From: a virus
Lineage: Duplodnaviria; Caudoviricetes
DNA: 47,018 nt
Strand: one strand, 5' to 3'
Virus record (IMG/VR): IMGVR_UViG_3300005611_000050
Span: 1-47,018 of that record
The first letter of the stretch is position 1. Each line of letters starts with the position of its first letter. The notes beneath the pieces are model-generated. The model saw nothing but the letters and a program-made list of their open reading frames with translations, ran no database searches and had not been told where the DNA came from. Shown one piece after another: positions 5,346 through 33,945 of this stretch. A program made the position numbers and the translations under genes.

Positions 5346-5353
5346 TTATTTGA

Positions 5354-5474: not shown

Positions 5475-5497
5475 CTTCGTTGTAGTTTTTAAACTAC

Positions 5498-6412: not shown

Positions 6413-6424
6413 TATCTAGTCTCC

Positions 6425-7069: not shown

Positions 7070-7092
7070 GAGTTTTTACCTCGTAAAATTTA

Positions 7093-7557: not shown

Positions 7558-7566
7558 GTCAGTCTC

Positions 7567-8959: not shown

Positions 8960-9146
8960 CGTCTTCTGTTTTCTCCAGCAGGGTTTTCATTTCGTCGATG
9001 GCAGTGGCAACACCCTGAAGCTCCCCTACCATACTGCGATACTGCTCATAGTTCTGAGCAATACCGTTTGCCAATTGATCCCGTAAATCGAATTCACGTT
9101 CTCGTAGGACTTTATACAATGATTGTGCGAATTGAACAACATCCAT
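8916..9146 (-). CDS. Hypothetical helical protein
   Basis: 76 aa; Y..Y...VG...G motif; coupled to the upstream gene. Confidence 0.7.
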   Translation of the reverse strand: MDVVQFAQSLYKVLREREFDLRDQLANGIAQNYEQYRSMVGELQGVATAIDEMKTLLEKTEDDVEDLFASSGARRR

Positions 9147-9894: not shown

Positions 9895-10271
9895 TTCTTA
9901 CCCTTCTTGAGACCCATGATCTTGTCTGCAGACTTTAATCCAAAACTAGCACTGACTGCAATGAATAGCAGGTACTGGTACCACTCCGGCAAACTGTTTA
10001 AAGCTGCAAACCCTTGATTAACACGGTCGATGATTGATACATCATCAATCGCTACGCTATATGCTACAGCAACGATTGGAAGAGCGAGGATAATTGACCA
10101 AAACTCGTCCTTCCAACTGTTAGACGTAGCGTCAGCCATCTTGTTTTCCCAGTCCGCGTCGTTCTGAATCGCACTGATCTTTCGTTGTTGAATCGCTTTC
10201 TTCTCTTCCGCTTTGCCCTTGACGAAATCTTTTGCGAGGTCTATGGCGGGGCCGATGAGCATGTTTAACAT
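9891..10271 (-). CDS. Holin-like membrane protein (3TM gene-transfer-release holin type)
   Basis: SWKDE motif, hydrophobic helices, LPEWY...SFG. Confidence 0.65.
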   Translation of the reverse strand: MLNMLIGPAIDLAKDFVKGKAEEKKAIQQRKISAIQNDADWENKMADATSNSWKDEFWSIILALPIVAVAYSVAIDDVSIIDRVNQGFAALNSLPEWYQYLLFIAVSASFGLKSADKIMGLKKGKK

Positions 10272-10273
10272 GG

Positions 10274-10588
10274 TTAGTCACCTTTCTTAGATAAAGCACT
10301 TGCACCAAAGAACGCCGAAACCAACACAGCAATTGAAGCGAAATACGTTGGAGCAATATCAGCAATCAAGGTAGCGGCTGTACCCATAGCGAAGGCATCA
10401 GCAAGAAAAATACCAAATGGATACAGTAGAAGACCAAACAGAGCAAACCAAGCCATCTTACGGATAGAATCACGTTGGGCATCTGAATCTTCCATCTTTC
10501 GACGCATGTCTTCCAACATAATCTTGCGTTCTTCAGCATCGATAACACCGTCGCCGTTCAAGTCGTATTTTTGCATTTCTTCAGTCAT
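10274..10588 (-). CDS. Membrane protein with an EF-hand-like loop
   Basis: DLNGDGVIDAEE followed by two transmembrane helices. Confidence 0.7.
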   Translation of the reverse strand: MTEEMQKYDLNGDGVIDAEERKIMLEDMRRKMEDSDAQRDSIRKMAWFALFGLLLYPFGIFLADAFAMGTAATLIADIAPTYFASIAVLVSAFFGASALSKKGD

Positions 10589-10770
10589 TGCATTGTAATC
10601 TCATTTGTTTTGATGCAGATTGCATCGTAATTCATCTTCGGTTGTGGTGCAGATTGCATTACAACATCCCGCGCTTCAAAGCACTCTTCCATTGTCATGT
10701 AGTGACCTTGCGGCATTACATAATACCGTTCAGCCTCCAATAATAAAACAAACAGTACCCATGTGATCAT
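10585..10770 (-). CDS. Small exported/membrane-anchored protein
   Basis: 61 aa; hydrophobic N-terminus, two Cys; GGAG RBS. Confidence 0.55.
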   Translation of the reverse strand: MITWVLFVLLLEAERYYVMPQGHYMTMEECFEARDVVMQSAPQPKMNYDAICIKTNEITMQ

Positions 10771-10954
10771 GTCTATACTCCTTGACTCTCCCGAGCCTGT
10801 CGTAGACTGTTAAGTCTGGCGTCGATCCTTTCGAGGGCTTCTGCCAGTCGATAAATGGCTGTTCCTTTGAACTTGCTTGGGCAGGTGTTAAGGGAGACAC
10901 AACGTCTGGCTTCCTCCAAGCTGGATGAAAAGGACTGATAAATAGATCGCTCAC
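10730..10954 (-). CDS. Hypothetical protein
   Basis: 74 aa starting right after the upstream stop; alternative frame 10773..10958 is possible. Confidence 0.45.
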   Translation of the reverse strand: MSDLFISPFHPAWRKPDVVSPLTPAQASSKEQPFIDWQKPSKGSTPDLTVYDRLGRVKEYRHDHMGTVCFIIGG

Positions 10955-11404
10955 TCACTTGCCCTTAAGACCAATAATAAACAGTAGTAAGGCCACGGCC
11001 CCGCCCACAACACCGAGCACAGCAACGCCAACACCAGTCCAAACAAGTCCATCACGAATGGCTTTCTTTCGAGCAGCCTTCTTAGCTTCTGCACGCTTAC
11101 GCTCGTTTTCTCTTAGCTGTTTACGATTTGCAATGAATGTGCAGTAATCATCCCAAAGACCGGGGCGTCCTGCATAGATGAATTGACGTTTGATTTCAGC
11201 CTCATGTCTCTTGATGTCCTCAAGAGCCCAAAAAGCTTCCATGTCCCCGCTGGCTGCGGCTTTCTGGATTTCTTCTTTGGAATCGGCGAGCTTGGTAAGA
11301 TCTTTACCCATCTCGCCTACAGATTGAACGTGGCCTGCGAACTCTTTGATGGCCCCTATCGCTTCATTTGCAATTTTAATTGCAGCAATGGCCTCAAAGA
11401 TCAT
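10955..11404 (-). CDS. Hypothetical protein with C-terminal transmembrane helix
   Basis: 149 aa; AGGAG RBS; hydrophobic C-terminus. Confidence 0.7.
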   Translation of the reverse strand: MIFEAIAAIKIANEAIGAIKEFAGHVQSVGEMGKDLTKLADSKEEIQKAAASGDMEAFWALEDIKRHEAEIKRQFIYAGRPGLWDDYCTFIANRKQLRENERKRAEAKKAARKKAIRDGLVWTGVGVAVLGVVGGAVALLLFIIGLKGK

Positions 11405-11415
11405 CGCAGCATCTC

Positions 11416-13878
11416 CTATGTCGTGTTACGTCTCATCATGTTCTCTCTCTGCATGGCGATACGTTCCATGTTCACGTCGTTGCGATTATCTGCAATCTCT
11501 TCTTGAGACTCAATTCTAGCAGCATCGGTTGCTGCACGCTGCATCATTTTTTGACGCTCGATCTCGAGATTTGCCTGATCAACCTTAGACCGGCGTTCTA
11601 CATCGGCTGCCTTAATAGCAAGCTCTTGCTGGCGAATAGCAACCAATGGGTCTTGTTCGCCCTGCTGTTGTGGACTGATCTGCTGCATAACCTGAGCAAG
11701 CAGTTCTGCCTGAACCTGAGCAACACGCGTTTCGATCTGCTCTGGTGGGATTTGAGGCTGAACCTGAGCCATCCGTGGATCAATCGCCCCCATTTGAGCG
11801 GCCCCCTGTAATTCAAGAGTCATCTGCTTAATTTCTTCTTCAACCATCATCCGAGCCTTGAATGCAATGTGCTCTTGAATGTGAGCCAAGAACATTCCAT
11901 AAGCTTGTGGCGACGCCTGCACTAACGGTGTCTGCATCAGTACAACGTGAGCCATGATGTGTGCATCATGATCCTGCTCTGGAAACGCCTGTAAAAGCTG
12001 CCCGCTCAATCCACGAGCATTCTCAATTGCCGGATCTGTTGGCTGAGGCTGCGGTGGAGGCGGTAAGATATCGTCGATGTTCTGAACTTCCAATGCCTGA
12101 TACATACGTTTGTACGCCGCATGCAGGTTGTGCATCTCAGGATTAGACTGAGCCAACTGCAACTGAGTCTGCGCGAGTGTTACACGTTGCGCCATCGAGA
12201 AGATGTTCGGGTCAGAAACAGGCAGTACATCAACACGGTCGTCAAAGTCTGACTGCATGATCGTGGCATCACCACCCGGTACCATATACGGGTACTGCTG
12301 TGGCATGTAATCACGAATGATGCCTGCTAACAGACGGAACTCGGTCTTCTGTGCGTAATGCAACCGCTTATGGATCGCACTCATCACCTTCATGCCGCGC
12401 TCAAGTAGCGCGACTGTTGTACCTACAGGCTGTTGCTGTGATCCCGGTGAGCCGGTTTGCTGGTCGGCAATGGAAACAAACCGCCGCCCAGATTCAATAA
12501 GGACTCCCAAAAGTTGCGCCAACGTCGCCGACGGTTCTTTGTACGGGAGTGGGATAATTGAATTCCGTATGTCTCCGCCAGGAGCGTCAATGTCCCTGAA
12601 CTCGCCAGGGGCAATCGGTTCATCGTCGTTACGAACGCGGATACCCCGCGCCTTGAATCCGGAAGGTAAGTTCGCCAATGTACCCGCATCGATCAACTGC
12701 CTCAAAATTGAAGTGGCTGCTTTGCCCAGCCCTCCAATCATGTGGATCAGGCCGAACCCATAGAACCCCAATCCCGGCAAGAACTTGTAATGAACGAAGT
12801 ACTGTTGCTTACGCTTCAGCGGGTCGCCTTCTTCATAGTTCCTGCGGATGGACAGCACCTCGCCCGAACTTTGGTCGATGGTGACAATATACGGAAGCTT
12901 GACCCCCGTAGGCTCGCCATTCTGATCTAAGTCCTCGAAACCTTCAATATCTAAATCCGTGTGGATTTCAAAAATCGTCAGGACATCATCTGATGATTCT
13001 GATTTGTCTATTCCCTGAAGCTCGCGAACCTTGTCTTTAACTGTGTCATCTTCTTCGTCATAGCCAGTCTGAAGATCAACATCTCTGTAGAAACCAACAA
13101 CTTGTAGCTTGCGAACTTGATTTTCGTCCATGCGAAGAATGTGTGTAACCCGCGATGAAGTTGCAAGATCACTCGTCGTGTAGGGGACAACCAAGTCTTC
13201 GGCAGGCACAAATCGAGATACCGGTCTTTGTTTTGTTTCATCGTAGTAAACCTTTTTAAACGTCGATCCACACAGCGGTAAATAGAACAGCATCTGATCC
13301 GTGTCAGGATCGTACTCTTCCATCACCTCAGTCACCATGTAGTTCATGAAGTTCTTAACACGGGTAGCCTGATCTTCGATCTCTGGAGTCTTCGCGCCAA
13401 TAACTTCAGCCCGAACTGGCCCGCCCGCTGGCAGTAATTCTTTGTATGCCTGAGCTTGGAACTGAGTGACCGACTCAGCAATAATCGGATGCGTTACCCC
13501 TGATGCCCCTTGAAAGGGTTGGCTACGCTCTTTTGTTTTGACTCCGAGCAGGTCGAGACCTTGAGTGTAGGCTTCTTGCCACTCGCTTCGTGAATCTTGA
13601 TCGTCTTCGACTCTTGCTCGAAGGTCGCTCGATATTTCACCCAAGATTGATTCATCAAGAATTTCAGCAAGGTTGGCATTATGGTCGTATTCTTCTGTGA
13701 CAACTTCGGCTCCTTCCTCTCCCATCAATGCTTGGATGATCGCGCCACCCGCGCCATCGTCCATAATTTCAGCACCGCCAGCAAAATCCTCCGGCTGTGA
13801 AATATCCACTTCCATTCCTGGGACCGCTTCGATGGAGCTGTCCACCATGCCTTGCATCATATTCGAGGGAACTGACAT
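11416..13878 (-). CDS. Portal protein
   Basis: 820 aa directly after TerL; LPLCGSTFKKVY and GFYGFGL motifs; long Gln-rich helical C-terminus (P22-like barrel). Confidence 0.88.
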   Translation of the reverse strand: MSVPSNMMQGMVDSSIEAVPGMEVDISQPEDFAGGAEIMDDGAGGAIIQALMGEEGAEVVTEEYDHNANLAEILDESILGEISSDLRARVEDDQDSRSEWQEAYTQGLDLLGVKTKERSQPFQGASGVTHPIIAESVTQFQAQAYKELLPAGGPVRAEVIGAKTPEIEDQATRVKNFMNYMVTEVMEEYDPDTDQMLFYLPLCGSTFKKVYYDETKQRPVSRFVPAEDLVVPYTTSDLATSSRVTHILRMDENQVRKLQVVGFYRDVDLQTGYDEEDDTVKDKVRELQGIDKSESSDDVLTIFEIHTDLDIEGFEDLDQNGEPTGVKLPYIVTIDQSSGEVLSIRRNYEEGDPLKRKQQYFVHYKFLPGLGFYGFGLIHMIGGLGKAATSILRQLIDAGTLANLPSGFKARGIRVRNDDEPIAPGEFRDIDAPGGDIRNSIIPLPYKEPSATLAQLLGVLIESGRRFVSIADQQTGSPGSQQQPVGTTVALLERGMKVMSAIHKRLHYAQKTEFRLLAGIIRDYMPQQYPYMVPGGDATIMQSDFDDRVDVLPVSDPNIFSMAQRVTLAQTQLQLAQSNPEMHNLHAAYKRMYQALEVQNIDDILPPPPQPQPTDPAIENARGLSGQLLQAFPEQDHDAHIMAHVVLMQTPLVQASPQAYGMFLAHIQEHIAFKARMMVEEEIKQMTLELQGAAQMGAIDPRMAQVQPQIPPEQIETRVAQVQAELLAQVMQQISPQQQGEQDPLVAIRQQELAIKAADVERRSKVDQANLEIERQKMMQRAATDAARIESQEEIADNRNDVNMERIAMQRENMMRRNTT

Positions 13879-15350
13879 CAGTAATACTCTCTCACTCTAG
13901 GAATATCGTTTTCTTCATCGCCGTCTTCACCGTCTAAGAAGACAAACCCACCTTGACGGAAGCGAATCAACGCCATCGTCATACTATCGACCAAGTCATC
14001 ATAGTCACCCATCGGAAATGCAGCGCATTCTTCAATGACTTCGTCGGCAAAAGACTTTTCAGGTGCCCAAACCATACCCGCTTCAAATAGCGGTGCGACG
14101 GTGTGCATCCGCGTGACCTTATCACGGCCTTTCGACGGAGTATAATTCACAACAGGTATCCCTGTCCTCCGCAATTCATCACTGAGCGGCGTACCTGTGG
14201 CCTTGGCTTCAATCAAAACCATGTCTGGTTCCCAGTAATCATGCTCTTCAAGGGCCACTTCCTTCAATTCGGGGAAGTTCCATCGTCCTTTCCGCGCATC
14301 CAATAGGATAATATGGTCTGAACCTCCTTCCTCTGGCTCAAATATTCCCCATGTGGTAATGGCGGAATAGTCCGCGGTCTCTTTCTTCGAGAACGCAGTA
14401 TCATAGCTCTGCAAGACATACTTGATCGGCGGGACATCCTCTTTTTCCCAGACACGCCACCATTCCTTCTTAACAATCGCCCCTTCAGACGCTGTTGGTT
14501 GCTGTTGCCACTGTGCATTCCACTTCGCAAGCGGAAGAGCAGCCTTAACCTTGAGCAAATCGTCCTTATTCCAGAACTCAGGCCACAATGGTTCGTCCGA
14601 TGGCATGATTGCAGGGAACTCAACGACCTCCCACTCGTCCGACATCACGTCTTCGCCCTGTGCTTTGAGCAAACGACCGGTCAAATCCTTGGTTCCCCAC
14701 CGAGTCATGACCACAATGATGGCTCCGCCCGGTTGCAAACGCTGTCGAGGACCAGATGTGTACCATTCGTAAGCATGATCGAACGCAGTTTCGGATAATG
14801 CGTCTTGTTCCGAGTGCGGATCGTCAATAATAAACAAATCAGCACCACGACCAGTCACCGCGGCACCCACACCAGCGGCAAAATATTCGCCGCCCTCGGC
14901 AGTTCCCCATCGACCGGCTGCTTTGTCATCAGATTTTAAGTGAGTATTTGTGAAAATATCACGATAAATCTCAGAACCCATCAAATCACGCACTTTCCTA
15001 CCAAAACGCACAGCAAGTTCTGTATTGTGCGTGGCCTGAATGATCTTCAACTTCGGATTTCGGCCCAAGAACCATGCTGGCATGAGATAAGAAGCGAATT
15101 CAGACTTGGAATGACGCGGTGGCATGTTAACAATTAGCCGTTTCAGTTCACCTTTTGCAATGCGTTCCAGTTTTTCTGCAATGATTCGGTGGTGACGGCC
15201 CTCAATGAAGCCGTCATAGACGTGATGAACGAAGGGCATGAACTGATCTTGCGCTTTCTCACGCGTTTCGAGGCGGATTTCCGCCTCTTTCAGTGAGAGA
15301 ATCTCCTTGAGAACCTCTTCAGGTAACGCTTCGAGTGCTGCTTGGTCCAT
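13878..15350 (-). CDS. terL: Terminase large subunit
   Basis: Walker A variant NMPPRHSKS, Walker B FIIDDP, coupling motif VMTRW, nuclease SYDTA and DDLVD. Confidence 0.95.
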   Translation of the reverse strand: MDQAALEALPEEVLKEILSLKEAEIRLETREKAQDQFMPFVHHVYDGFIEGRHHRIIAEKLERIAKGELKRLIVNMPPRHSKSEFASYLMPAWFLGRNPKLKIIQATHNTELAVRFGRKVRDLMGSEIYRDIFTNTHLKSDDKAAGRWGTAEGGEYFAAGVGAAVTGRGADLFIIDDPHSEQDALSETAFDHAYEWYTSGPRQRLQPGGAIIVVMTRWGTKDLTGRLLKAQGEDVMSDEWEVVEFPAIMPSDEPLWPEFWNKDDLLKVKAALPLAKWNAQWQQQPTASEGAIVKKEWWRVWEKEDVPPIKYVLQSYDTAFSKKETADYSAITTWGIFEPEEGGSDHIILLDARKGRWNFPELKEVALEEHDYWEPDMVLIEAKATGTPLSDELRRTGIPVVNYTPSKGRDKVTRMHTVAPLFEAGMVWAPEKSFADEVIEECAAFPMGDYDDLVDSMTMALIRFRQGGFVFLDGEDGDEENDIPRVREYY

Positions 15351-17596
15351 TAACTAACCGGGAAAAGGGGCGAAAACCGTTTCGATGCCTGATAGCTCGG
15401 ACGTAAACGTGTCGGTGCCAAGCTCGGCAGTCCCGTGTAAGCATACGAAATTGGTCCACGCTGCTGATATTGATAGGGCTGAACAAGCACTCGACCCTGA
15501 TCATCAACGACAGGAGCTTCTGGCGGTTGCTCAACCGGAGGTGGTAAAATTTGTTGACCACCGTCACCGCCTTGCATCTCTCGTTGTTGCTCGTCTATTG
15601 TACGCTGGCGAGCGTACAGTTCCTCAATATTCTCAGGTGTCCCACCCGTGAAAATATCTCCTATCCGATCCATCATGCCTGCACTGTCATAAACAACATT
15701 GCCTCTGGCATCATAAGCCGCGGTCCGACCACCTTCACCAATCGGTCCGCCAGCAGTCACTACATCTAATCCTTGCGGGTTGTAGTTAGCTGTGCCTTCA
15801 GGAACTGGACTGCCATCAATCGTACGAATACCGCGCTCCGCAATTGCATTGGCTAAAGCAGCGTCTGGATTGAAAAGCGCGTCCGCAACTCCTTCAAGCA
15901 CTCCAACACCCGTCGGAATCTTCGCGCCAAATACATCAATTGAGCCCGGAAGTCCTGTGTCAAAACCAAACTGCTTGTCTCTGTAAGCTTCTGCTCGTGC
16001 AGCTTCAAGATTGGCTTGAGCTTCCGCTAACGTGTAATCCGGGGCCCGAGGATCTTGGCCCGCGATTTCTCTTCTTTCGGCTGTGGCACCTATAGGAATG
16101 CCAGTCATTTCTGCATCAACACCTTGCTGAGACATACGCTCGGCATCTGTCAAAGTTGCAGCCTGTGGAGTGGCTATGCCACGCCCGCCATAAATTGCTT
16201 CGTCTTCTGGCTGCTCTTGGAATTGATTTGTGTCCGCGATCTCATATTCCCCGGGACTGAAGTAACCTTCACGATCCTTCTGCATTGCCCTATCTAAAGT
16301 CACCGGAGTTCTGTTTGCAGCAGCAGTTGATCTAGCAATTAAATCATTAGCTAACTGCATCTGCTCAAGGTCAAACTGCTGTGGGCTGTCGGACATGACT
16401 CCCGCAGAAATGCGCGGGTCGAAAGTTCCTTGGACCGAGGGCTGAACATCAAAAGTCTGTGACCCCGTCAAAGCCAGCTCTTGCGGTGTCCGACTGGTCG
16501 AGACCGCTGGACCGGTTAACCCAATAATCCCCGCAACTTCTTGTGCCGGAACACCAGTTTCCAGCTCAACTTCTTTCGATACTTGAGATAACACCTGTTC
16601 TGCAGGAGTTCCGGGTTGTGCTTGAGGCTGAAGACCTCCTTCTAACACGTTGCTTGGTTCAAAGACATCAATGTCGTCCATGAACAAGCTGCCACCCATT
16701 ACTGGATCGGCGCGTACGCCTTCTGCCACACGTCCGGGGACAGCTTGGTCCAAAATACCAGAAGCAATTTGCGCGACTTCAGGGGTTAGTCCGGGAGTGA
16801 CCTGACGAGCAGCCTCAACTTTTGCCGGTTCCAATGCCGCTTGAGTTATTGCCGTGCCTTGAGGTCCTTGGTCCGCGGCCCGCGAACCGGGAGTCGTGCC
16901 AAAACCTTCACCAAAATCTGTTCCTGCCGCACCCCTAATCGCATCCATAATCGAAGAAGTGTCAGTGCCTGCAGCCTTAGCAGCTTCTTGAACTGAACGG
17001 CTAGACGTGACAGGTGTCCCATCCCTTGAGCGGACAATGTTTCCATTGTTCGTTACAAATACATCCGAAGGAACTCCGGCCTTGGCCGCCGCAGCTTCTG
17101 CTTCAGTTTGCTTTGCAGTAGTTCCTGCGGAACCAGCTCCAAGTGCAGGACCTTCAGCGGGGCCAATACTTGGCCCGGGGCCATAGCCAATTGGCCCAAA
17201 GCCGCGGCCTGCCGCTCCACCTGGGTCAAATACATTTACACCCGCGGCAATTGAACCTACCGCTTGGTCATAACTATCAGCGACGCTTTGTGAAGGGCTG
17301 CCGAAACCGGAACGGTCTACACCCGGAGTCGCATCAATAGAGTTGGGAATACCGTCGCCGTCATTATCGTTTAACGAACCACCTCGGCCAACACCGCCAG
17401 ACATGCCAGAAGTGACAGATTGGCCTGCGGCTTGTTGTTGAGACATGTTTTCAAAGTCAGCGGAAATCTGATCTAGCTCATTCATCTGAGCGTCTTGCGT
17501 ACTCGGTCCGCCCGTGTCGCTGTCAGAAGGCCCACCAAAGCAGAAAAGCATTTCTTCCATTGGGTTGTCAGAAGGGTGTAAGGGGTTCAGTCTCAT
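15350..17596 (-). CDS. 748-aa acidic Gly/Ala/Pro-rich protein; probable virion/ejected protein and candidate acylation substrate
   Basis: Overlaps the acyltransferase stop (ATGA) and the terL start (TAATG); CFGG near the N-terminus; DNDGDGIPNSIDATPG Ca-binding-like motif. Confidence 0.75.
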   Translation of the reverse strand: MRLNPLHPSDNPMEEMLFCFGGPSDSDTGGPSTQDAQMNELDQISADFENMSQQQAAGQSVTSGMSGGVGRGGSLNDNDGDGIPNSIDATPGVDRSGFGSPSQSVADSYDQAVGSIAAGVNVFDPGGAAGRGFGPIGYGPGPSIGPAEGPALGAGSAGTTAKQTEAEAAAAKAGVPSDVFVTNNGNIVRSRDGTPVTSSRSVQEAAKAAGTDTSSIMDAIRGAAGTDFGEGFGTTPGSRAADQGPQGTAITQAALEPAKVEAARQVTPGLTPEVAQIASGILDQAVPGRVAEGVRADPVMGGSLFMDDIDVFEPSNVLEGGLQPQAQPGTPAEQVLSQVSKEVELETGVPAQEVAGIIGLTGPAVSTSRTPQELALTGSQTFDVQPSVQGTFDPRISAGVMSDSPQQFDLEQMQLANDLIARSTAAANRTPVTLDRAMQKDREGYFSPGEYEIADTNQFQEQPEDEAIYGGRGIATPQAATLTDAERMSQQGVDAEMTGIPIGATAERREIAGQDPRAPDYTLAEAQANLEAARAEAYRDKQFGFDTGLPGSIDVFGAKIPTGVGVLEGVADALFNPDAALANAIAERGIRTIDGSPVPEGTANYNPQGLDVVTAGGPIGEGGRTAAYDARGNVVYDSAGMMDRIGDIFTGGTPENIEELYARQRTIDEQQREMQGGDGGQQILPPPVEQPPEAPVVDDQGRVLVQPYQYQQRGPISYAYTGLPSLAPTRLRPSYQASKRFSPLFPVS

Positions 17597-17997
17597 GCGA
17601 TCATCCAGCCAAATCTGTTCTGTTCAGTACGGTATATCCTAAACTTGGTCCCCTTCGGGAACTCTCTCCGCAACGCTCGAACAATATTCCGGCAGAACCC
17701 GAATGGAGCAGCGAAGTCAATTGCCCATAGAGTACCATCTTCTGACTCGAAATCACTAGCAAGGATACTGGACGGCTTCTCCATGTATGCCTTTTCGCGG
17801 TCCGGGGGCAGATAAGTCCAAGTAAATATCCCTGCAGGACGGTTTTGATTATCGTAAATCACTCGCAACCGGTCATTCTTGATCGCCGCAATAAAGTAAT
17901 TGTTGATATGTTCAAGGTCCGCGGACCGGTGATAGTGGCTGCAACGTAATACGAGCAGTGCGTCTAGCAATAATTGCGTATTGGAATGAAAATACAT
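17593..17997 (-). CDS. RTX toxin-activating lysine acyltransferase family protein (HlyC/TAAT-like)
   Basis: From ATG 17997 (134 aa): S20-x-x-H23, P.G..TW.YL, W.ID94F.APFG and F...R align with HlyC SPLH, SWA.L, WFIDWIAPFG and FRAIR. Confidence 0.88.
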   Translation of the reverse strand: MYFHSNTQLLLDALLVLRCSHYHRSADLEHINNYFIAAIKNDRLRVIYDNQNRPAGIFTWTYLPPDREKAYMEKPSSILASDFESEDGTLWAIDFAAPFGFCRNIVRALRREFPKGTKFRIYRTEQNRFGWMIA

Positions 17998-18266: not shown

Positions 18267-18296
18267 TTGTGTATTCTTGTGTAGGTATGGTATGAT
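18267..18296 (+). promoter_or_regulatory. Early promoter P1
   Basis: TTGTGT-18 bp-TATGAT with TGn extension; upstream block shared with P2. Confidence 0.7.
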
Positions 18297-18322
18297 GATC
18301 CCATCATCACAAAGGAGGACTA

Positions 18323-18538
18323 ATGATGATTACACAACACCAAGCGCGTAAATACGCAAAAGCCACTGGCTTCGAGAAGCTCGCATTGATCGACGACATG
18401 ATCAAGGCTTTGACTGCGAGCAAGAAAGAGTTGCGCGACCAATTGGTCGAAGCAGGACAGGCCGAGTACCGCGAAGTATTCGTTGACGAATACACGGTCA
18501 AGGCTTTCACCCGCAAGACGTTCAAGCGTCTTGCATAA
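18323..18538 (+). CDS. Early hypothetical protein (cassette 1)
   Basis: AAGGAGGACTA RBS; 71 aa. Confidence 0.8.
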   Translation: MMITQHQARKYAKATGFEKLALIDDMIKALTASKKELRDQLVEAGQAEYREVFVDEYTVKAFTRKTFKRLA

Positions 18539-18578
18539 TCAAACGGGGGCTCCGGCCCCCATCTTTGGAGGACTAAGC

Positions 18579-19001
18579 ATGAAAACAATTATCACTGACA
18601 CCAACTGGAGGGGCGTGCCATGCACGCTCCGCTATGACGGATCACTCAAGCCAGTGTGCGAGGGTGACATGTTCGGCGAGTCGATGGTCATGGGCGGGCG
18701 GGCTCCGCACAAAGAGTCATCGACTGGGTACATGACGTATGCCAATGGGGACAGCCGCTATGTGCATGGGTGCCATTGGGTCGAGGACTACGATCCGAAC
18801 GCATGGGCAGTCATGTGCCGGATCAAGAAGAAGGGCCGGAAAGCCGCGGGCGAATGGGAGGAGGAGTACACATACTCCATCGAAAGCAACGGCGACACCG
18901 CCGCATACCTAATGGCGCACGGTCGAGCGCGGTTGCTCGAGTTCAACCCAGACCTCGAGTGCTTCATCAAGGCGGTGCGAGAACCGCTCTACGAAGACTA
19001 A
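18579..19001 (+). CDS. Early hypothetical protein (cassette 1)
   Basis: TTGGAGGACTAAG RBS places the start at 18579; GGRAPHK.SSTG motif. Confidence 0.8.
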   Translation: MKTIITDTNWRGVPCTLRYDGSLKPVCEGDMFGESMVMGGRAPHKESSTGYMTYANGDSRYVHGCHWVEDYDPNAWAVMCRIKKKGRKAAGEWEEEYTYSIESNGDTAAYLMAHGRARLLEFNPDLECFIKAVREPLYED

Positions 19002-19007
19002 CCGGAG

Positions 19008-19032
19008 GGGGCGAAAGCCCCTTCTTTTTTTT
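19008..19032 (+). terminator. Intrinsic terminator
   Basis: GGGGC-GAAA-GCCCC followed by T8. Confidence 0.85.
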
Positions 19033-19053
19033 CTCAATGATTACAAGTGCCAC

Positions 19054-19071
19054 GGGTCGCAGGTCGCAGGG
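19054..19071 (+). repeat. GG(C/T)CGCAG cluster 1 (2 copies)
   Basis: gggtcgcaggtcgcaggg. Confidence 0.8.
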
Positions 19072-19099
19072 TATTAGACCTTTGGATAAGAATAAATAC

Positions 19100-19128
19100 T
19101 TGTGTAAACTAATGTAATGTGAGACTAT
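19100..19128 (+). promoter_or_regulatory. Early promoter P2
   Basis: TTGTGT-17 bp-GACTAT with TGn extension; shares TATTAGACC and ATAAATACTTGTGTA with P1. Confidence 0.6.
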
Positions 19129-19168
19129 TTCTTTGTCGGAATAACCCGACGTTTTGGAGGACTAAAAC

Positions 19169-19438
19169 ATGAATCAATTACGAAAGAAGCTTACCGACAT
19201 CGGCATCGCCGATACCCGTCAGTTCTACATCGAGGACGCGCTTGCTGCTTGTCACCGCGCCTTCTCCCCTCTGGACACGACCAACCGCGCCTTGATCGTT
19301 GAGCACCTGCCGTTCATCGCCCAGTGTGCTCGGTTCTATGGCCTGAACTCGGTCGCGTGCAACACGTTCGAGCACGACGGCATCGAGATGCCCGAGGACA
19401 TCGACGCTCGCGTCCGCGAGATAATGGACAACCTGTAA
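19169..19438 (+). CDS. Early hypothetical protein (cassette 2)
   Basis: TTGGAGGACTAA RBS; 89 aa. Confidence 0.8.
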   Translation: MNQLRKKLTDIGIADTRQFYIEDALAACHRAFSPLDTTNRALIVEHLPFIAQCARFYGLNSVACNTFEHDGIEMPEDIDARVREIMDNL

Positions 19439-19469
19439 AGGAGGCGGGGGCTTCGGCCCCCGAACTTAT

Positions 19470-19625
19470 ATGAGTGAAAAATATACAGTATGGGTTGGCG
19501 GCACAGAAGTTACCGACTATGCCGTTGACTTCGATGAAGCTTATTATATTGCGAGTGTCTGGCATGTTGATGAGGGTCACGACGACGTACAAATCCAAGA
19601 GATAGAAGAAGAGGACGAAGAATGA
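19470..19625 (+). CDS. 51-aa very acidic protein (missing from ORF track)
   Basis: MSEKYTVWVGGTEV...EIEEEDEE; ATGA overlap with the next gene. Confidence 0.75.
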   Translation: MSEKYTVWVGGTEVTDYAVDFDEAYYIASVWHVDEGHDDVQIQEIEEEDEE

Positions 19626-19918
19626 AAGCACCAATGTCACTAGGCTGGACAAGCGATCCGGCACACGGCTGGCTATTAGTCACCGAAGAACAGATGAAGG
19701 AGAGCGGCATCAAGGCCGCGACCTTCTCCCCTTACTCTTACTACTCCGCGGAGTTCAGGACATACGCACTCGAAGAAGACTGCGATGCCGCCTTGTTTCT
19801 CCGCGCCCTGGCCGACCAGGGTATTGAGCACATGGTCTGGGAGGAGCACCAAAGTACAGGTGACTCCTTTGTCAGATCATGGGATCGAATAGAGCAGGAG
19901 ATAGTCCTTTCGGATTAG
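19622..19918 (+). CDS. Conserved phage protein (DP.HGWL / LEEDCD motifs)
   Basis: 98 aa; GAGG RBS; motif pattern familiar from phage early genes. Confidence 0.75.
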   Translation: MKAPMSLGWTSDPAHGWLLVTEEQMKESGIKAATFSPYSYYSAEFRTYALEEDCDAALFLRALADQGIEHMVWEEHQSTGDSFVRSWDRIEQEIVLSD

Positions 19919-19929
19919 TCCTCCGGATC

Positions 19930-19956
19930 AAGCCCCCGAAAGGGGGCTTTCTTTTT
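19930..19956 (+). terminator. Intrinsic terminator
   Basis: AAGCCCCC-GAAA-GGGGGCTT followed by a T-rich tail. Confidence 0.85.
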
Positions 19957-19974
19957 CCTGGCTCCTCGACTCCA

Positions 19975-20020
19975 GGTCGCAGGGCCCTTCTTACTAGGCC
20001 GCAGGGCCGCAGGCCGCAGG
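19975..20020 (+). repeat. GG(C/T)CGCAG cluster 2 (4 copies)
   Basis: ggtcgcag ... ggccgcagggccgcaggccgcagg. Confidence 0.85.
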
Positions 20021-20031
20021 TCCAATAAAGC

Positions 20032-20059
20032 TTGCACACACAACTAGTTATGCTATTAT
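20032..20059 (+). promoter_or_regulatory. Early promoter P3
   Basis: TTGCAC-16 bp-TATTAT with TGn extension; spacer contains AACTAGTTATG. Confidence 0.7.
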
Positions 20060-20102
20060 GGAGGTCGGGCATTTGCCCGTTTCAAAGTCTATGGAGGACA
20101 AG

Positions 20103-20321
20103 ATGAAAAACAAAGAAATCAGGAAAGAACTACAGGAAATTTCCAACCACCTCTGCGAAGCGCGGAACCGGTTGGACGAACTGTATCAGGTGCTCTTCAT
20201 CGAGCGCGAAGATCTGAACCTTGACGACCTGATCAAGGATATCTCAATTGCCGTCGAAGATGCCGAGGTCGAGATCGACCGAATCGTTGACGAAGGTGTT
20301 GACTGTATGGAGCGGGCGTAA
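20103..20321 (+). CDS. Early acidic helical protein (cassette 3)
   Basis: TGGAGGAC RBS places the start at 20103. Confidence 0.75.
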   Translation: MKNKEIRKELQEISNHLCEARNRLDELYQVLFIEREDLNLDDLIKDISIAVEDAEVEIDRIVDEGVDCMERA

Positions 20322-20349
20322 GCCCCTCCCTTTAACTGGAGGACTAAAC

Positions 20350-20583
20350 ATGCATATTGATTTCGAGGCAAAAATTATGGCCGTTCAACTCACACTAGAC
20401 GCGGACGAAGTATTGAACATCGCGAACATGTACCGCGATGCCGCGAACCAGGACCGCGAAGACGGATACCGGCACTCTGCCGGGTCCACCTACAAAAAGG
20501 CCGCCTGGTATTACCGCGCCATTGGTGAAACATGGTACGCGGACCGATGCGAGCGCGATGCCAAAGAGGCAAAGGAGGATTAA
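20350..20583 (+). CDS. Early hypothetical protein (cassette 3)
   Basis: TGGAGGACTAA RBS places the start at 20350. Confidence 0.75.
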   Translation: MHIDFEAKIMAVQLTLDADEVLNIANMYRDAANQDREDGYRHSAGSTYKKAAWYYRAIGETWYADRCERDAKEAKED

Positions 20584-20586
20584 CCG

Positions 20587-20613
20587 AGGGGCCGAAAGGC
20601 CCCTTTCTCTTCT
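20587..20613 (+). terminator. Intrinsic terminator
   Basis: AGGGGCC-GAAA-GGCCCCT followed by a T/C tail. Confidence 0.75.
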
Positions 20614-20630
20614 GTCGGTACTAGGCCCCC

Positions 20631-20705
20631 GGGCCGCAGGCCGCAGAGATTGGGCCTTGTTACAAGGGCCGCAGGCCGCAGGGCCGCAGGCCGCAGGGCC
20701 GCAGG
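20631..20705 (+). repeat. GGCCGCAG cluster 3 (7 copies)
   Basis: 2 + 5 copies with alternating 7/8-nt period. Confidence 0.9.
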
Positions 20706-20713
20706 AATAAACA

Positions 20714-20741
20714 TTGACCGCATAACTAGTTATGTTATTAT
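20714..20741 (+). promoter_or_regulatory. Early promoter P4 with palindromic operator-like spacer
   Basis: TTGACC-16 bp-TATTAT; perfect palindrome CATAACTAGTTATG at 20721-20734. Confidence 0.75.
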
Positions 20742-20773
20742 TATATTTCGGCTTATCTATTGGAGGATTTCAA

Positions 20774-21373
20774 ATGTCGATTTTATCTCAAACCCACAAA
20801 ATGCCCGGCAAGTCTATCAGTCTTGATGCCCGGGAATGCCGGACCGGAGCGAAGCTCGCAAAGGTTCCCGGTTCAGTGTGCCACGGATGCTATGCATTGA
20901 AAGGCCGCTATCGTATGGACAATGTCCGGTCCGCAATGGCTCGCAGACTGCAATTCATGACAAGCGCATCATTCGTTGATGATATGACGGCGGAGCTGTC
21001 CCGGATTCGCAAGCCCCATTTTCGGTGGTTCGATTCTGGTGATGTTCAGAGCGTACAAATGGCGGTAGATATTGTGGAAGTGTGCAAGCGTACGCCACAC
21101 TTGAAGCATTGGATCCCTACCAAAGAGCCCGCAATTTGGGCCGAGGCGTTGAAGCACGTCACGCTCCCGGACAATGCAATCTTGAGACTGTCCGCGCCAT
21201 TAGTTGACGACGCGGCCCCCGATTCCTGGGCCCACACTTCCACGGTCCACAAAGATGGACCGGCCATTGGTCACGAATGCCCGGTTAAATCCGGGAAAGA
21301 ACAATGCGACACCTACGGATGCCGCGCATGCTGGGACCAAAACGTACCCAATGTATCCTACAAGCACCACTAA
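20774..21373 (+). CDS. GP88-family protein (Cys-rich, radical-SAM-like)
   Basis: C-x13-C-x2-CYA.KG.Y, FRWFDSGD, HW.PT.E and C-terminal CP...C...CRACW; ATTGGAGGA RBS. Confidence 0.75.
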   Translation: MSILSQTHKMPGKSISLDARECRTGAKLAKVPGSVCHGCYALKGRYRMDNVRSAMARRLQFMTSASFVDDMTAELSRIRKPHFRWFDSGDVQSVQMAVDIVEVCKRTPHLKHWIPTKEPAIWAEALKHVTLPDNAILRLSAPLVDDAAPDSWAHTSTVHKDGPAIGHECPVKSGKEQCDTYGCRACWDQNVPNVSYKHH

Positions 21374-21430
21374 TCACCGAACCGGGGGCCTAGGCCCCCG
21401 GACCTCGGCTCTCTGTCCCCTATTTGATCA

Positions 21431-21476
21431 GGCCGCAGGGCCGCAGGACTTGACTCGCAGGGCCGCAGGCCGCAGA
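21431..21476 (+). repeat. GGCCGCAG cluster 4 (4 copies plus 1 variant)
   Basis: Copies lie upstream of and inside a promoter spacer. Confidence 0.85.
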
Positions 21477-21478
21477 AT
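21450..21478 (+). promoter_or_regulatory. Sigma70-like promoter for the candidate sRNA
   Basis: TTGACT-17 bp-CAGAAT; no ORF before the terminator. Confidence 0.55.
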
Positions 21479-21484
21479 CACCCC

Positions 21485-21540
21485 AAGTTTCTTAGTCCTC
21501 CAATCTGAGAAAGCCCAGCCCCACTTCGGTGGGGCTTTTT
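21485..21540 (+). ncRNA. Candidate anti-Shine-Dalgarno small RNA (~56 nt)
   Basis: Stem UUUCUUAG/CUGAGAAA with loop UCCUCCAAU, then a UUCG terminator hairpin and U5; up to 13-nt complementarity to early RBSs. Confidence 0.55.
21517..21540 (+). terminator. Intrinsic terminator
   Basis: AGCCCCAC-TTCG-GTGGGGCT followed by a T-run; abuts the stop of the convergent nuclease gene. Confidence 0.85.
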
Positions 21541-21541
21541 A

Positions 21542-21973
21542 TTAGAGCCGCAGGCCGCAGGGCCGCAGAACCTCGGCCCAATGCTCAATAGATATCCGTT
21601 TCATCTCATCGAACACCTCATCGAGGGCCTTGGTCCTAAAACCTTCCGCGTAGGACACCCCGTCAGAGGCCACAGAACGCGCTGTACGCCCCTCAAATAA
21701 AAATAGGTCTCTATCCTTGGCCTGCTTAACTAAGATGAAGCTGAGACCTCCAACGTGGCTGTGAGAGGTATGCCAAGCGACCTGTTGAGGAGATAAACGG
21801 ACTGCGTTTCCCTTTATTACTTTAAGTTCTATCCAAAGCGGCATTGATTCCCAAATGGCATATACGTCAGGCATTCCCGCTGAGACTCTGTTCTCTAGTC
21901 TCCACGCGTAGGAATTCTTCGGTAGTTTCGCTCGGATTGTGTTCCAGAAGTTCGCCTCCGGTCCCTGTGACAT
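21542..21973 (-). CDS. PD-(D/E)XK nuclease (VRR-NUC/Holliday junction resolvase-like)
   Basis: E..FW...RLE....GMPDV......WIELK.......LSPQQVAW. Confidence 0.8.
   Translation of the reverse strand: MSQGPEANFWNTIRAKLPKNSYAWRLENRVSAGMPDVYAIWESMPLWIELKVIKGNAVRLSPQQVAWHTSHSHVGGLSFILVKQAKDRDLFLFEGRTARSVASDGVSYAEGFRTKALDEVFDEMKRISIEHWAEVLRPCGLRL
21546..21568 (+). repeat. GGCCGCAG cluster 5 (3 copies, inside the 3' end of the nuclease gene)
   Basis: agccgcaggccgcagggccgcag; read as LRPCGLRL on the minus strand. Confidence 0.8.
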
Positions 21974-22454
21974 CCTTATATTCTCCCTCGATAAATGCGT
22001 GCGGATATTTTTTCTGCAGTTCGGTCAGTCTGGCGACGATGTCAGCACGGCTCATCTCATCCAGTTTGTTGATGGTTTCTCTGCGGTCGATGGTCAGGCC
22101 GCCCAATGCGGACCTGATTTTCTCAGCGTTGATCGCGGCAGAGAATTGACCGGACTCTTCAGCACCGCGTGACAGTTCATCAAGCCGTTTCATTTGGCCG
22201 ATCAATGTCACCCCGTATCGACGTTCCTTTTCTTCTCTGAGTTCTCTGATGTACTCGAGTACCTGTGGATGCTCCCGACCTGATAACAGTTTGGAAGCGT
22301 AGACGTGGGCAGTATCGACAGAGAACCCTGCCTTTCTCGCACACTCGGCATTCGAGTAAATGCCTTCAACATAATATTTACAGAATTCACGCTGACGGTT
22401 GGTCAGTTTCTTATGACCTCTCTCTTCAATCTGCGTGGCAATTTTATCGCTCAC
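21867..22454 (-). CDS. terS: Terminase small subunit
   Basis: LTNRQREFC..YV.....AECARKAGFS......ASKLL HTH, then AAINAE...GL. Confidence 0.85.
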   Translation of the reverse strand: MSDKIATQIEERGHKKLTNRQREFCKYYVEGIYSNAECARKAGFSVDTAHVYASKLLSGREHPQVLEYIRELREEKERRYGVTLIGQMKRLDELSRGAEESGQFSAAINAEKIRSALGGLTIDRRETINKLDEMSRADIVARLTELQKKYPHAFIEGEYKDVTGTGGELLEHNPSETTEEFLRVETREQSLSGNA

Positions 22455-22539: not shown

Positions 22540-22683
22540 GTAACCTGTTAGAAGTGTTACAAATGTTACAAATCTGAAACAAAGTGTTACGAATAAAATC
22601 CTTTGTTTATGCACCTTTCAGAGAGTTTCGTAACGTCGTAACACTCGTAACACCATATTTGAAAAATAAAAAATATTTTTTTG
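22540..22683. repeat. Inverted iteron-like repeats with AT-rich tract (origin or packaging site candidate)
   Basis: TGTTAC x3 (22555-22590) facing CGTAAC x3 (22629-22651), then AAAAATAAAAAATATTTTTTT. Confidence 0.6.
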
Positions 22684-22773: not shown

Positions 22774-22807
22774 TGCAAGTGGGTTCATAACTTTTGGAGG
22801 ATTACCC

Positions 22808-23515
22808 ATGACACAGCTTAACCCTGATTTCGTTTTACAGATGTCTGCCTACGGTGCGGACTTTGAGTTCCAAGGTTCGCGGTTCAAGATCATCTGGTCC
22901 ACGATCCGCGGTCCGGTGCGCGAGCGTCGCAACTACAAGCAGGATTGGATCCTGTCTGATATGTGGGAGGTCGATGAGTCGGGTTCCCAGATTGAGGGTG
23001 GTGATGTCGCTGTTGGTTCAGAGCCGTGGACCGCGGCCCTAGAACAGAAGACAGCGCATGATGCGTTGTTTGGTCAGATCATTCGTATCGGTGAGCTAGG
23101 TATGTTCCAGTTCGCTGACGACTACCGTCCTGAGATGCCGTATTACATGGTGCAAGAGCAGGTGTTCCGTTTCATGGAGATTATGGAGCGTAAGCCTGAG
23201 TATCACGCTAATGATGTCTGGCATGAGATGTTCATGGATGTCTACAAACAGTATGAGTATTACCGCGAGAAAAAGTTGCGGGAGTCGATTTTCTTTTATC
23301 ACTGGTCGCGTGACTGTGATTTGTGTGAGTCCGAGGGCATTGAAGTGTTCGAGGATTGGTATGACGCGGCTGAGTGGATCAAGGGCTTTGGTGATAGTGC
23401 TGAAGGTCCGCAATCGTTGGAGAAAATTTCGTATGAGCAGTGGCAGACGTTTAATGCGTCGCCTGTTCGGGATCGTGCGTTGGAGCAATTCGAGGAGTAT
23501 GGCTATGGATATTAA
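22808..23515 (+). CDS. Early hypothetical protein
   Basis: 235 aa, acidic and aromatic-rich; RDCD motif; strong RBS. Confidence 0.8.
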   Translation: MTQLNPDFVLQMSAYGADFEFQGSRFKIIWSTIRGPVRERRNYKQDWILSDMWEVDESGSQIEGGDVAVGSEPWTAALEQKTAHDALFGQIIRIGELGMFQFADDYRPEMPYYMVQEQVFRFMEIMERKPEYHANDVWHEMFMDVYKQYEYYREKKLRESIFFYHWSRDCDLCESEGIEVFEDWYDAAEWIKGFGDSAEGPQSLEKISYEQWQTFNASPVRDRALEQFEEYGYGY

Positions 23516-30894: not shown

Positions 30895-30984
30895 TTTGTC
30901 CTCCATTAATGTTGCATTGTGTTCGATACATTATCATATGTTTTCGATCATGCAAACTCACTTAAACCTGAAGAGGACAAACTT

Positions 30985-32406: not shown

Positions 32407-33945
32407 ATGTCAAACGTAAAACGGTTTATGGCCGCGTTCAAAGGTTCGGATGTGGCACATGGACAAACCCAGATTGGGTCTACAAGAAGAAACGGGAAGA
32501 CTGAAGCAAAAAGTTTCGTGGTCCGAGAGCCGCTGACCGAGGATAAGGTAGCGAAGCACTTGGCCGGTGAACTGGGTGTCGGTGCTATTCCGATCAACAA
32601 CGACAACAATTGTAAGTTCGGTGTGATCGATATCGATACTTATCCGGTGGACCATGCAGGCATAGTGAAGCAGTTGGATGGACTTGGTATCCCGATGGCG
32701 GTGTGCCGGTCAAAGTCTGGCGGTGCTCACCTGTATATGTTCTTCGCCGAGTTCTACCCTGCGTCAGAGATCCGTGAGTTTCTGCAAGAGATTGCTGCGA
32801 CTATTGGATGGTCAGGCAGTGAGCTGTTCCCTAAGCAGGATAAAATCCTATTGGATCGTGGTGACGTGGGTAACTTCATTAACCTGCCATACTTCGATGC
32901 CGAGCAGACAATGCGGTACATGGTTGATGCGGACGGGCAGGACGTATCGTTGGAGGACTTCCTTGACTGGATCGACAAGAACCAGATTAGTTTGTCCGAG
33001 CTTGCAGACTTTCCTATTGGTATGAACCAAGAGTTGTTTGATGACGCACCCCCGTGTGTGCAAACAATGCTGATCAACGGTTTCCCCGAAGGCACTCGAA
33101 ACAAAGGGATGTTCCAGACGGCTATCTATTTAAAGAAGAAATTTCCTGATGGGTGGCAGAAAGAGTTGGAGGCTATCAATCAGAAGCACTGTAACCCACC
33201 GCTCCCTGCGATAGAGATTGTGCAAATACAGTCACAGCATGAGAAAAAGGATTACGGTTTCATGTGTGGCGAAGAGCCCTTCTGCTCGCACTGTAATAAG
33301 CAGCTTTGTAAGCAGAAGAAATTTGGTGTTGGTGGCGGTGGTGGCGGCAGGGTTGATATGCCAAACATCAGCGGCCTGACGATCTTGTTATCAGAGCCCC
33401 GTCTGTACTTCTTGGATGTGGACGGGCATCGCCTGGAGTTATCCACAAAGCAGTTACAGATCCCGATGCAGTTTCAGGAAGCTTGTATGGAGCAGATCAA
33501 CTTCATGCCTCCGACACTGAAGTCTTCCGAGTGGCAACAGATCGTAAACAATTTGTTGCAGAACGCATCGCACATTGAGGTGCCTGAAGAGCTTACTGTG
33601 GCCGGACAGTTTAAAGAATTGCTGCAGATGTTCTGTACATCACGCATCCGCGCTATGTCGCCAGAAGAACTGGAGCTTGGTAAGCCGTGGACCGAGAACG
33701 GTAAAACCTACTTTAAGATCAAAGGACTGCAGGAGTTTTTGTATAACCGAGGATTTACCTCATTAAAACGTCCGCAGATACAAGAACGATTGAAGGACCT
33801 TAATGAAGGCAAAGATTGCCACTCACAATTTAGATACAAAGATGAAAAGAACGAGTGGAAAAATACTAGAGTCTGGTGGGTCCCAGAATTTAAAGATGAA
33901 GAGGTCGTATTACCTGAAGGAGAAACCTATGAAGCACCGTTCTGA
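32407..33945 (+). CDS. Archaeo-eukaryotic-type primase with PriCT-like/Cys-rich domain
   Basis: GVIDID (DxD), RSKSGGAHLY (SxxGxH), GNFINLPY; PPC...EG.RN...C....C..C....C. Confidence 0.85.
   Translation: MSNVKRFMAAFKGSDVAHGQTQIGSTRRNGKTEAKSFVVREPLTEDKVAKHLAGELGVGAIPINNDNNCKFGVIDIDTYPVDHAGIVKQLDGLGIPMAVCRSKSGGAHLYMFFAEFYPASEIREFLQEIAATIGWSGSELFPKQDKILLDRGDVGNFINLPYFDAEQTMRYMVDADGQDVSLEDFLDWIDKNQISLSELADFPIGMNQELFDDAPPCVQTMLINGFPEGTRNKGMFQTAIYLKKKFPDGWQKELEAINQKHCNPPLPAIEIVQIQSQHEKKDYGFMCGEEPFCSHCNKQLCKQKKFGVGGGGGGRVDMPNISGLTILLSEPRLYFLDVDGHRLELSTKQLQIPMQFQEACMEQINFMPPTLKSSEWQQIVNNLLQNASHIEVPEELTVAGQFKELLQMFCTSRIRAMSPEELELGKPWTENGKTYFKIKGLQEFLYNRGFTSLKRPQIQERLKDLNEGKDCHSQFRYKDEKNEWKNTRVWWVPEFKDEEVVLPEGETYEAPF

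Follow-up and report, generated by a model that had tools for sequence, protein, structure and literature searches.

Small RNAs (sRNAs) that occlude ribosome-binding sites (RBSs) are well known. The cuckoo, RSs0680 and ar14 sRNAs of Alphaproteobacteria (Rfam RF02344) are chromosomal and consist of two to four hairpins with CCUCCUCCC; they present an invariant anti-Shine-Dalgarno (anti-SD) loop on compensatory stems and have been proposed to occlude RBSs (PMC4615179). For Staphylococcus aureus RNAIII and other sRNAs with C-rich loops, the same source reports the suggestion that the loop starts pairing at the RBS of several mRNAs. Among phage RNAs, c4 of P1 and P7 (RF01695) is an antisense RNA that represses phage genes by pairing and controls one operon (icd-ant) for lysogeny (PMC8198154, PMC2864571), and SviR of the phage satellite PLE is a multi-target sRNA predicted to occlude phage RBSs without Hfq or ProQ (10.1101/2022.04.08.487710). 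The T4 endoribonuclease RegB follows the logic of an RBS-directed class switch with a protein: it inactivates early mRNAs at GGAG Shine-Dalgarno sequences, and late mRNAs resist (PMC3014915). The closest published anatomy is that of the start-associated sequences (SAS) in cluster K mycobacteriophages. There, non-structural genes carry an extended RBS, of which four phages also have one inverted copy away from gene starts; whether an RNA or a protein binds it was left open by the authors (PMC3203893).

The locus described here lies in a 47 kb virus record (~81% complete, 49% GC), and the whole stretch of 47,018 nt that was analysed is called the window. It holds a predicted sRNA unit whose loop mirrors the RBS of the phage's own small genes. 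The unit shares the invariant anti-SD loop and the compensatory stems with the cuckoo RNAs, but has one hairpin and a UCCUCCA loop, is phage-borne, and carries a seed that tracks its own RBS (PMC4615179). Membership of the cuckoo family is not indicated: the CCUCCUCCC loop and the two to four adjacent motif hairpins are absent (there is one motif hairpin plus a terminator), and the DUF1127 gene typical of cuckoo neighbourhoods gave no PF06568 match in G000 (~81% complete). RNAIII and the other sRNAs with C-rich loops are unrelated to the unit in sequence and size, are cellular regulators, and do not mirror a phage-private tag (PMC4615179). Whereas c4 controls a single operon, the unit mirrors many separate cassettes (PMC8198154, PMC2864571). 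SviR is satellite-encoded, 160-300 nt long, and has two seeds and, in the accessible text of its preprint, no standardised RBS tag (10.1101/2022.04.08.487710). RegB is a protein nuclease that needs S1, whereas the reader in the present case is predicted to be RNA (PMC3014915). The SAS differ in sequence and host phylum, and the accessible text demonstrates no sRNA for them (PMC3203893). The available part of a 2025 review (PMC12197685) describes no sRNA class switch of this kind, and the term 'small RNA' does not occur in the main text of PMC9599517, as far as that text is accessible. A literature search, largely of open-access main texts, found no phage sRNA that shuts down a temporal gene class via a standardised RBS.

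The candidate sRNA unit and its genomic setting

The top PolA matches of the phage were 023Pt_psg01, DSL-LC04, HTVC023P and HTVC027P, and the terS query matched just the two HTVC phages. The phage is provisionally called an HTVC023P-like marine podovirus, a label taken from the nearest PolA and terS records, because the nearest annotated records of PolA stand at 47.5-54.4%. The DSL genomes are uncultured (PMC10611076). The Hjc-like resolvase gene and terS converge from the right on a series of small plus-strand cassettes (Table 1), seven of whose eight genes gave no meaningful Pfam or PHROG match; the eighth is a GP88-family gene (PF17338, E 1.9e-25). The description of these genes as serving host takeover, made in an earlier sequence-only reading of this DNA, thus finds no support.

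The region around the cassettes contains many short repeats, and the cassettes are shuffled. Strand-biased arrays of GCCGCAG/GTCGCAG heptamers lie between the cassettes (window 19056-21568, plus strand), with 16 of the 23 plus-strand GCCGCAG copies within 19998-21562; other phage groups have CCCGAA or GGCGCAAGA arrays in the corresponding place. Elsewhere in the window, the Rfam model Mu-gpT-DE (60.4 bits) matches nt 5292-5344 (minus strand), 3' of the capsid gene, as it also does in four relatives, and Pfam HlyC, the RTX acyltransferase family, matches at the head of the late operon (E 2.5e-17; nt 17593-17997, minus strand). Upstream of terS, TGTTAC repeats and their inverted form GTAACA lie clustered at nt 22555-22652, a possible packaging or origin site, and a phage/bacterial junction in L499 falls at a similar repeat. 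The resolvase and the element were also present in two genome bins (L476, L477). In L476, ~1.7 kb of phage DNA abuts a bacterial contig (33% GC) at the start of a wecB-like ORF; no host was assigned from it because the junction may be a misjoin.

Table 1. Features of the candidate sRNA unit, its predicted targets and related elements (positions are those of the window unless a locus or genome is named)
Feature	Position	Strand	Details
Structural genes (portal, terminase large subunit, capsid, GroES)	161-17997 and 38143-46807	-	
Small plus-strand cassettes	18323-21373	+	each with promoter-like and terminator-like sites
Hjc-like resolvase gene	21542-21973	-	convergent with the unit; Hjc E 0.003, below cut-off; anchor for relatives
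terS	21867-22454	-	Terminase_2, E 2e-11
Sigma-70-like promoter (putative function)	21450-21478	+	TTGACT 21450-21455, 17 nt, CAGAAT 21473-21478
Predicted sRNA, ~56 nt	21485-21540	+	5' end placed from the -10
Seed hairpin	21488-21512	+	8-bp stem 21488-21495/21505-21512, one G-U pair
Seed hairpin loop	21496-21504	+	9 nt, UCCUCCAAU, contains UCCUCCA
Seed	21491-21504	+	from 5' arm through loop
Intrinsic terminator-like hairpin, UUCG loop	21517-21540	+	stem-loop 21517-21536, five T at 21536-21540
Hairpin 3' of GP88	21382-21401	+	without U tract
Strong early-type promoter before GP88	20714-20741	+	TTGACC-16-TG-TATTAT, 10/12, TG present
Sites similar to the GP88 promoter	18267-18296 and 20032-20059		
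Second inverted RBS copy, 10 nt	19915-19924	+	over stop codon of ORF 19622-19918, before terminator 19930-19949
RBS of 71-aa ORF 18323-18538	18314-18323	+	10 nt complementary; net -8.3 kcal/mol
RBS of 140-aa ORF 18579-19001	18565-18577	+	13 nt complementary; net -11.1 kcal/mol
RBS of 89-aa ORF 19169-19438	19154-19165	+	12 nt complementary; net -7.9 kcal/mol
RBS of 72-aa ORF 20103-20321	20092-20099	+	8 nt complementary; net -8.0 kcal/mol
RBS of 77-aa ORF 20350-20583	20337-20347	+	11 nt complementary; net -5.2 kcal/mol
RBS of GP88-family gene 20774-21373	20759-20767	+	9 nt, the whole loop; net -9.6 kcal/mol
RBS of first gene of rightward operon, 22808-23515	22794-22801	+	8 nt complementary; net -8.1 kcal/mol
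RBS of SNF2 helicase (GTG at 30894)	30898-30905	-	8 nt complementary
Hairpin after capsid stop, A/U-rich loop	5482-5497	-	window has no capsid anti-RBS copy
Second copies after capsid stop	G001 C1 50007 (-); G002 C1 26224 (-); G004 C1 18613 (+)		also L531, L532, L545
Sister unit with hairpin, single-stranded UUUCCUUUC-type seed and terminator	L050: 2213-2282	-	mirrors GAAAGGAAA RBS

The plus strand of the unit folds at -22.3 kcal/mol (z -3.6, with none of 200 shuffles as good), and the seed hairpin alone gives z -2.5 on the plus strand versus z 0.1 on the minus strand, in agreement with the previous argument that its G-U pair favours the plus strand. The element had been taken as a structured, non-coding plus-strand unit rather than a minus-strand RBS, and this interpretation is upheld by the fold, by conservation and by the triviality of the minus-strand frames. 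The alternative of a minus-strand RBS of a small gene was rejected, as only a 2-codon TTG frame and a 17-codon GTG frame follow, the 2-codon frame being missing in L011-L025. Positions and match lengths that the sequence-only reading had assigned to the promoter, hairpin, loop, terminator and RBS matches were all correct on recheck, although its list of matches had missed the inverted 10-mer that lies over a stop codon upstream (Table 1). This second inverted copy is predicted to be partly paired, and is present also in L002, L004, L006 and L008. Rfam covariance models gave no match to the site at the gathering score, the best sub-threshold result being isrB (24 bits vs 35), and RF01695 (c4) matched neither the window nor seven stretches of relatives.

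In the putative promoter of the unit the -10 is weak and the spacer, built of GCCGCAG repeats, is GC-rich; the promoters of the cassettes differ from it in having an extended -10. Its hexamers and spacing are as originally described, but its score (9/12) is not exceptional: a scan of the window found nine such sites versus 11.1 in shuffles. Taken alone, the promoter is no better than chance, and because sites of this score are as frequent in shuffles the case for it rests on conservation. As the hairpin 3' of GP88 has no U tract, GP88 transcripts may also read on into the sRNA. Nine public sequencing runs were listed, all with small shares, three of them on record as RNA and one guessed to be so; these are contigs alone and hence uninformative on a transcript. 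An X1 contig ends just past nt 21540, as do contigs of X6 (kind unknown), and contigs of X3 and X4 cross this position. One RNA-library contig spans nt 21293-21540, which does not show a single transcript.

Conservation in relatives

Relatives were collected using the resolvase as anchor. The unit adjoins the resolvase end in L001-L027, lies 1.0-1.7 kb away in a second group (L040/L212-L254), and is kept down to ~44% resolvase identity. A relaxed filter, applied to 91 loci that differ in their resolvases, found it in 48; many of the remaining loci were short. A midpoint-rooted resolvase tree of the 75 loci whose flank measured 1.5 kb or more (four rows labelled by hand) places the unit in 48 of 51 rows on one side and in 0 of 24 on the other, the branch that splits carriers from non-carriers being weakly supported (83/54). 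Five near-complete relatives each gave a single match to model R1.

The comparison of 27 distinct hairpins shows that both stem and loop are preserved. The six inner stem pairs hold in 161 of 162 cells, and the loop reads (U/C)CCUCCA(A/U/G) in all 27. Pairs 4 and 5 swap among four to five pair types. At pairs 1-3, the base on the 5' arm is G in 27 hairpins, A in 25 and T in 27, respectively, a near-invariance that is expected if these bases also read the RBS spacer. These pair counts were anchored by hand; the unanchored MAFFT alignment (A1) was 82.5% paired, with a covariation score of 0.448 that none of 500 shuffles reached, and this score is conservative because five rows of A1 are off by one column. 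A GC hairpin with a U tract follows in the homologues, the terminator having been part of the search filter. Upstream, the -35 is TTGACA in L002-L025, a TTG -35 stands 16-18 nt from a -10-like hexamer in 38 of 60 distinct upstream regions, and the mean promoter score is 11.1, compared with 8.3 +/- 1.4 at random anchors. Both hexamers persist in L466 and L472 with a different spacer, so the promoter does not simply result from the heptamer repeats. In L213, L217, L220-L229, L238, L243 and L445 the spacer of the sRNA promoter is palindromic, which suggests a possible regulator site.

A pattern scan of viral contigs, covering 13 of 64 parts, returned 120 loci. Seven of them have a contiguous stem of at least seven pairs, and all seven were forms already seen in the HTVC023P-like family. 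Among annotated relatives, no model match below E 0.07 was found in 24 kb of DSL-LC04, 40 kb of 023Pt_psg01 and 20 kb of HTVC027P, and a BLASTn search of phage records matched the terminator alone. In two unrelated contig groups (L104, L115, L142, L145, L162; and L102, L108, L188, L199) a conserved TCCTCCAA precedes a terminator-like hairpin; the eight of these contigs that were searched gave no match to model R1. The unit is thus a genuine and conserved RNA element of putative function, and comparison between relatives gives good evidence that it pairs with the phage's own early RBSs.

Target sites, joint change of seed and RBS, and other mirror forms

The small, likely early genes of the window have a common extended RBS, UUGGAGGACUAA. 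For inverted 12-mers common to two or more of seven early RBSs, the number expected in the window is 0.008, and one was found, at the unit; because the RBS is itself a repeat, the matches in Table 1 count as one event, not eight. After opening costs, the net pairing energies of seven targets in the window range from -5 to -11 kcal/mol, which is modest, and 10-nt seed matches also occur away from starts (e.g. nt 32950-32959). The phage gene searches found no RNA chaperone gene. Some target RBSs lie in or near the loops of weak mRNA hairpins (window 18302-18332; G002 51129, G004 49520), a placement that would favour loop-loop contact.

Selectivity was assessed in eight genomes by taking every start with an SD-like core and counting the uninterrupted Watson-Crick pairs that it can form with the seed of the same phage, 'early' being defined by position, strand and the look of the promoter. 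At least eight contiguous pairs were found at 40 of the 73 starts in the early region, at one of the 76 late starts and at none of the 25 starts of replication genes, and TGGAGG occurs in 44, 1 and 0 of the same sets, respectively. Late genes avoid the tag. The RBS of the helicase gene offers at least seven contiguous pairs in 7/7 genomes and at least eight in 1/7. Pairing is weak in some members, with at least eight pairs at 1 of 10 RBSs in L253 and 4 of 10 in L229. The earlier proposal that a whole set of early genes is switched off is thus too strong, given that 33 of the 73 early-region starts fall below eight contiguous pairs and L253 has just the one.

The seed and the RBS change together. 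Where seeds are of the CCUCCAA type, the core is preceded by TT in 86 of 176 RBSs and by AT in 31; with CCUCCAU seeds, AT precedes it in 63 of 101 RBSs and TT in two. Counted per locus, the loop end matches the RBS in 39 of 40. The A/T covariation of the loop end comprises two independent pairs on well-supported branches and four in all, numbers with which a sign test cannot reach significance. The most telling example is L219, a contig picked up by the structure filter and not by RBS match, whose seed differs at two bases with a compensated stem. Five of its eight RBSs read GGAGGGCAA, each with different flanks, and this tag is absent among the listed RBSs of the orthologues of its genes (identity 41-86%, with as many as 10 RBS types listed for a gene). 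Against its own RBSs the L219 seed gives -18.3 kcal/mol, compared with -13.1 to -14.3 for five other seeds there and about -12 for the L219 seed against the RBSs of other groups. L219 is a single contig: no second of its type was present among 84 pattern matches (one structured) or 80 metagenome loci. A 12 x 12 table of seeds and RBSs is nearly block-diagonal; the L219 seed has at least eight contiguous pairs on no RBS of 11 other phages, and the other seeds on none of the nine of L219, while L002, L011 and L040 cross-react fully. Compensatory changes in c4 and its target also exist between P1 and P7. The seed thus tracks phage-specific RBS flanks and is more than a look-alike of the 16S tail, as had been argued; the proposed covariation of sRNA and RBS spacer in related contigs was likewise found, in few independent events. 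In keeping with the functional class of trans-acting RBS-occluding sRNAs, the seed is unpaired in the predicted fold and complementary to RBSs encoded elsewhere, and natural compensatory change of seed and target has occurred, again in few independent events.

Sister phages carry other mirror forms. The hairpin form is missing from 39 loci. In 11 of these, non-coding sequence ahead of a terminator matches at least three RBSs of the same locus (seven UUUCCUUUC-type seeds, three twin loops and, in L245, a CCUCC form), and the other 28 showed no mirror seed. As these seeds were chosen by best match among one to five candidates, the evidence from them is partly circular. Besides L050 (Table 1), UUUCCUUUC-type units that mirror the GAAAGGAAA RBS of their phage occur in L044, L059, L064, L078, L304 and L585, 0.9-1.8 kb from the resolvase. 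In L583, L265 and L268, two hairpins with the same loop lie ~60-100 nt from the resolvase end, and 8 nt of the twin loops complement an RBS tag that three genes carry; L581 has one hairpin similar to this type, with no clear RBS match.

A second anti-RBS hairpin with a terminator directly follows the capsid stop in three of six genomes (G001, G002 and G004), and its loop end is the same as that of the main copy in G001 and G004. The capsid-side anti-RBS loop is lost in the window and in G003, and altered in G005. The exact form occurs at 3 of 63 capsid 3' ends, and a C-rich motif ahead of the capsid terminator is frequent among members of the family (14/63). The second copy points to late timing of the sRNA, indirectly and as the sole evidence on timing. 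In several of L502-L572 the capsid stop is followed by an extended -10-like site, a hairpin, a cuckoo-like C-rich stretch and a terminator, and these units are possibly another sRNA family.

Proposed mechanism and alternative explanations

The unit probably encodes a trans-acting sRNA of ~56 nt that would block translation of early genes as an early-to-late switch. Host RNA polymerase would transcribe the cassettes from their strong promoters, and the sRNA would accumulate later, through transcription from its own weaker promoter and read-through of the GP88 gene, to which some relatives would add RNA from the 3' end of the capsid gene. The open UCCUCCA loop, for which complementarity and covariation were found, is predicted to nucleate on UGGAGGA, and UAG of the 5' arm to extend the pairing onto the CUA spacer. 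The duplex would then cover the Shine-Dalgarno sequence and prevent loading of the 30S subunit, as is established for sRNAs with C-rich loops, and late genes, which have no tag, would escape.

The pairing could instead be aimed mainly at kin, the sRNA of a resident phage silencing the early genes of a later-arriving relative, with seed and RBS diverging to escape and so forming immunity groups. Near-orthogonality of seeds between groups, seen in both directions between L219 and 11 other phages, is in favour of this, as is the change of five sites along with the seed in L219, a high cost if the timer served the phage's private use alone; STnc6030, an antisense RNA of a phage, is reported to act in superinfection exclusion in the accessible part of a review (PMC12197685). 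However, seeds are common to wide stretches of the tree (L002, L011, L040), so seed switching is rare, and G-U pairs would soften the orthogonality. Exclusion of kin, which is compatible with self shut-off, is regarded as rather unlikely to be the main role. An RNA made from the start of infection might not be a timer at all but limit how much of the toxic early proteins is produced, much as a type I antitoxin common to several toxins would do. Such a role would agree with the position of the unit among early cassettes, its host-type promoter, the possible read-through from the GP88 promoter across a hairpin without a U tract, and targets that are small genes of unknown function. The second copy behind the capsid gene in 3/6 genomes and the fit of the helicase RBS to the seed argue against this, and toxicity of the targets is hypothetical; the dose cap is considered unlikely.

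The remaining readings fit the covariation poorly. A general anti-SD RNA directed at host mRNAs, which would match the phage's own RBSs because both resemble a strong SD, is suggested by the CCUCC core, which complements any GGAGG, by the C-rich motifs before 14 of 63 capsid terminators, and by the cuckoo RNAs, whose role as global repressors is described as an open question in the accessible text (PMC4615179). There would be no reason for a host-directed seed to track the private RBS flanks of a phage, and the sister seeds lack CCUCC (the L245 form apart), which makes host shut-off very unlikely. It is more doubtful still that the unit acts in cis, the 3' end of the GP88 mRNA folding back on its own RBS: the unit of the window does follow GP88, whose RBS complements the whole loop, and the RNA-library contig spans both sides of the junction, though not as proof of a single transcript, but in L040/L212-L254 the unit, 1.0-1.7 kb from the resolvase, lies upstream of the gene in the GP88 position with its own terminator, and in L219 five separate cassettes changed along with it. 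The least probable reading is that of an inverted RBS copy which has no function and stays similar through recombination between cassette repeats, or of a DNA site. The repeat-rich region and shuffled cassettes would allow for it, but the stem changes are compensatory on both sides with G-U pairs on one strand, and identity extends over just 9-13 nt with different flanks at each RBS.

Beyond the proposed early-to-late switch, a broader and more tentative view is that of a private translational address system, in which a lineage's own early RBS tag and its mirror sRNA would end the early phase and silence incoming kin, seed and tags being swapped in concert to found immunity groups. Perhaps an RNA counterpart of RegB, it would have arisen anew in at least three structural forms in the family and might explain the SAS of cluster K. 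If the reading holds, the unit would give a direct test for what binds the SAS sites (PMC3203893). The seed/RBS pairs of the window and L219 form a natural compensatory set that is testable in Escherichia coli without phage culture, and could serve as short orthogonal translational repressors. If the switch is real, small lytic phages end their early phase with 56 nt, the job that RegB does in T4.
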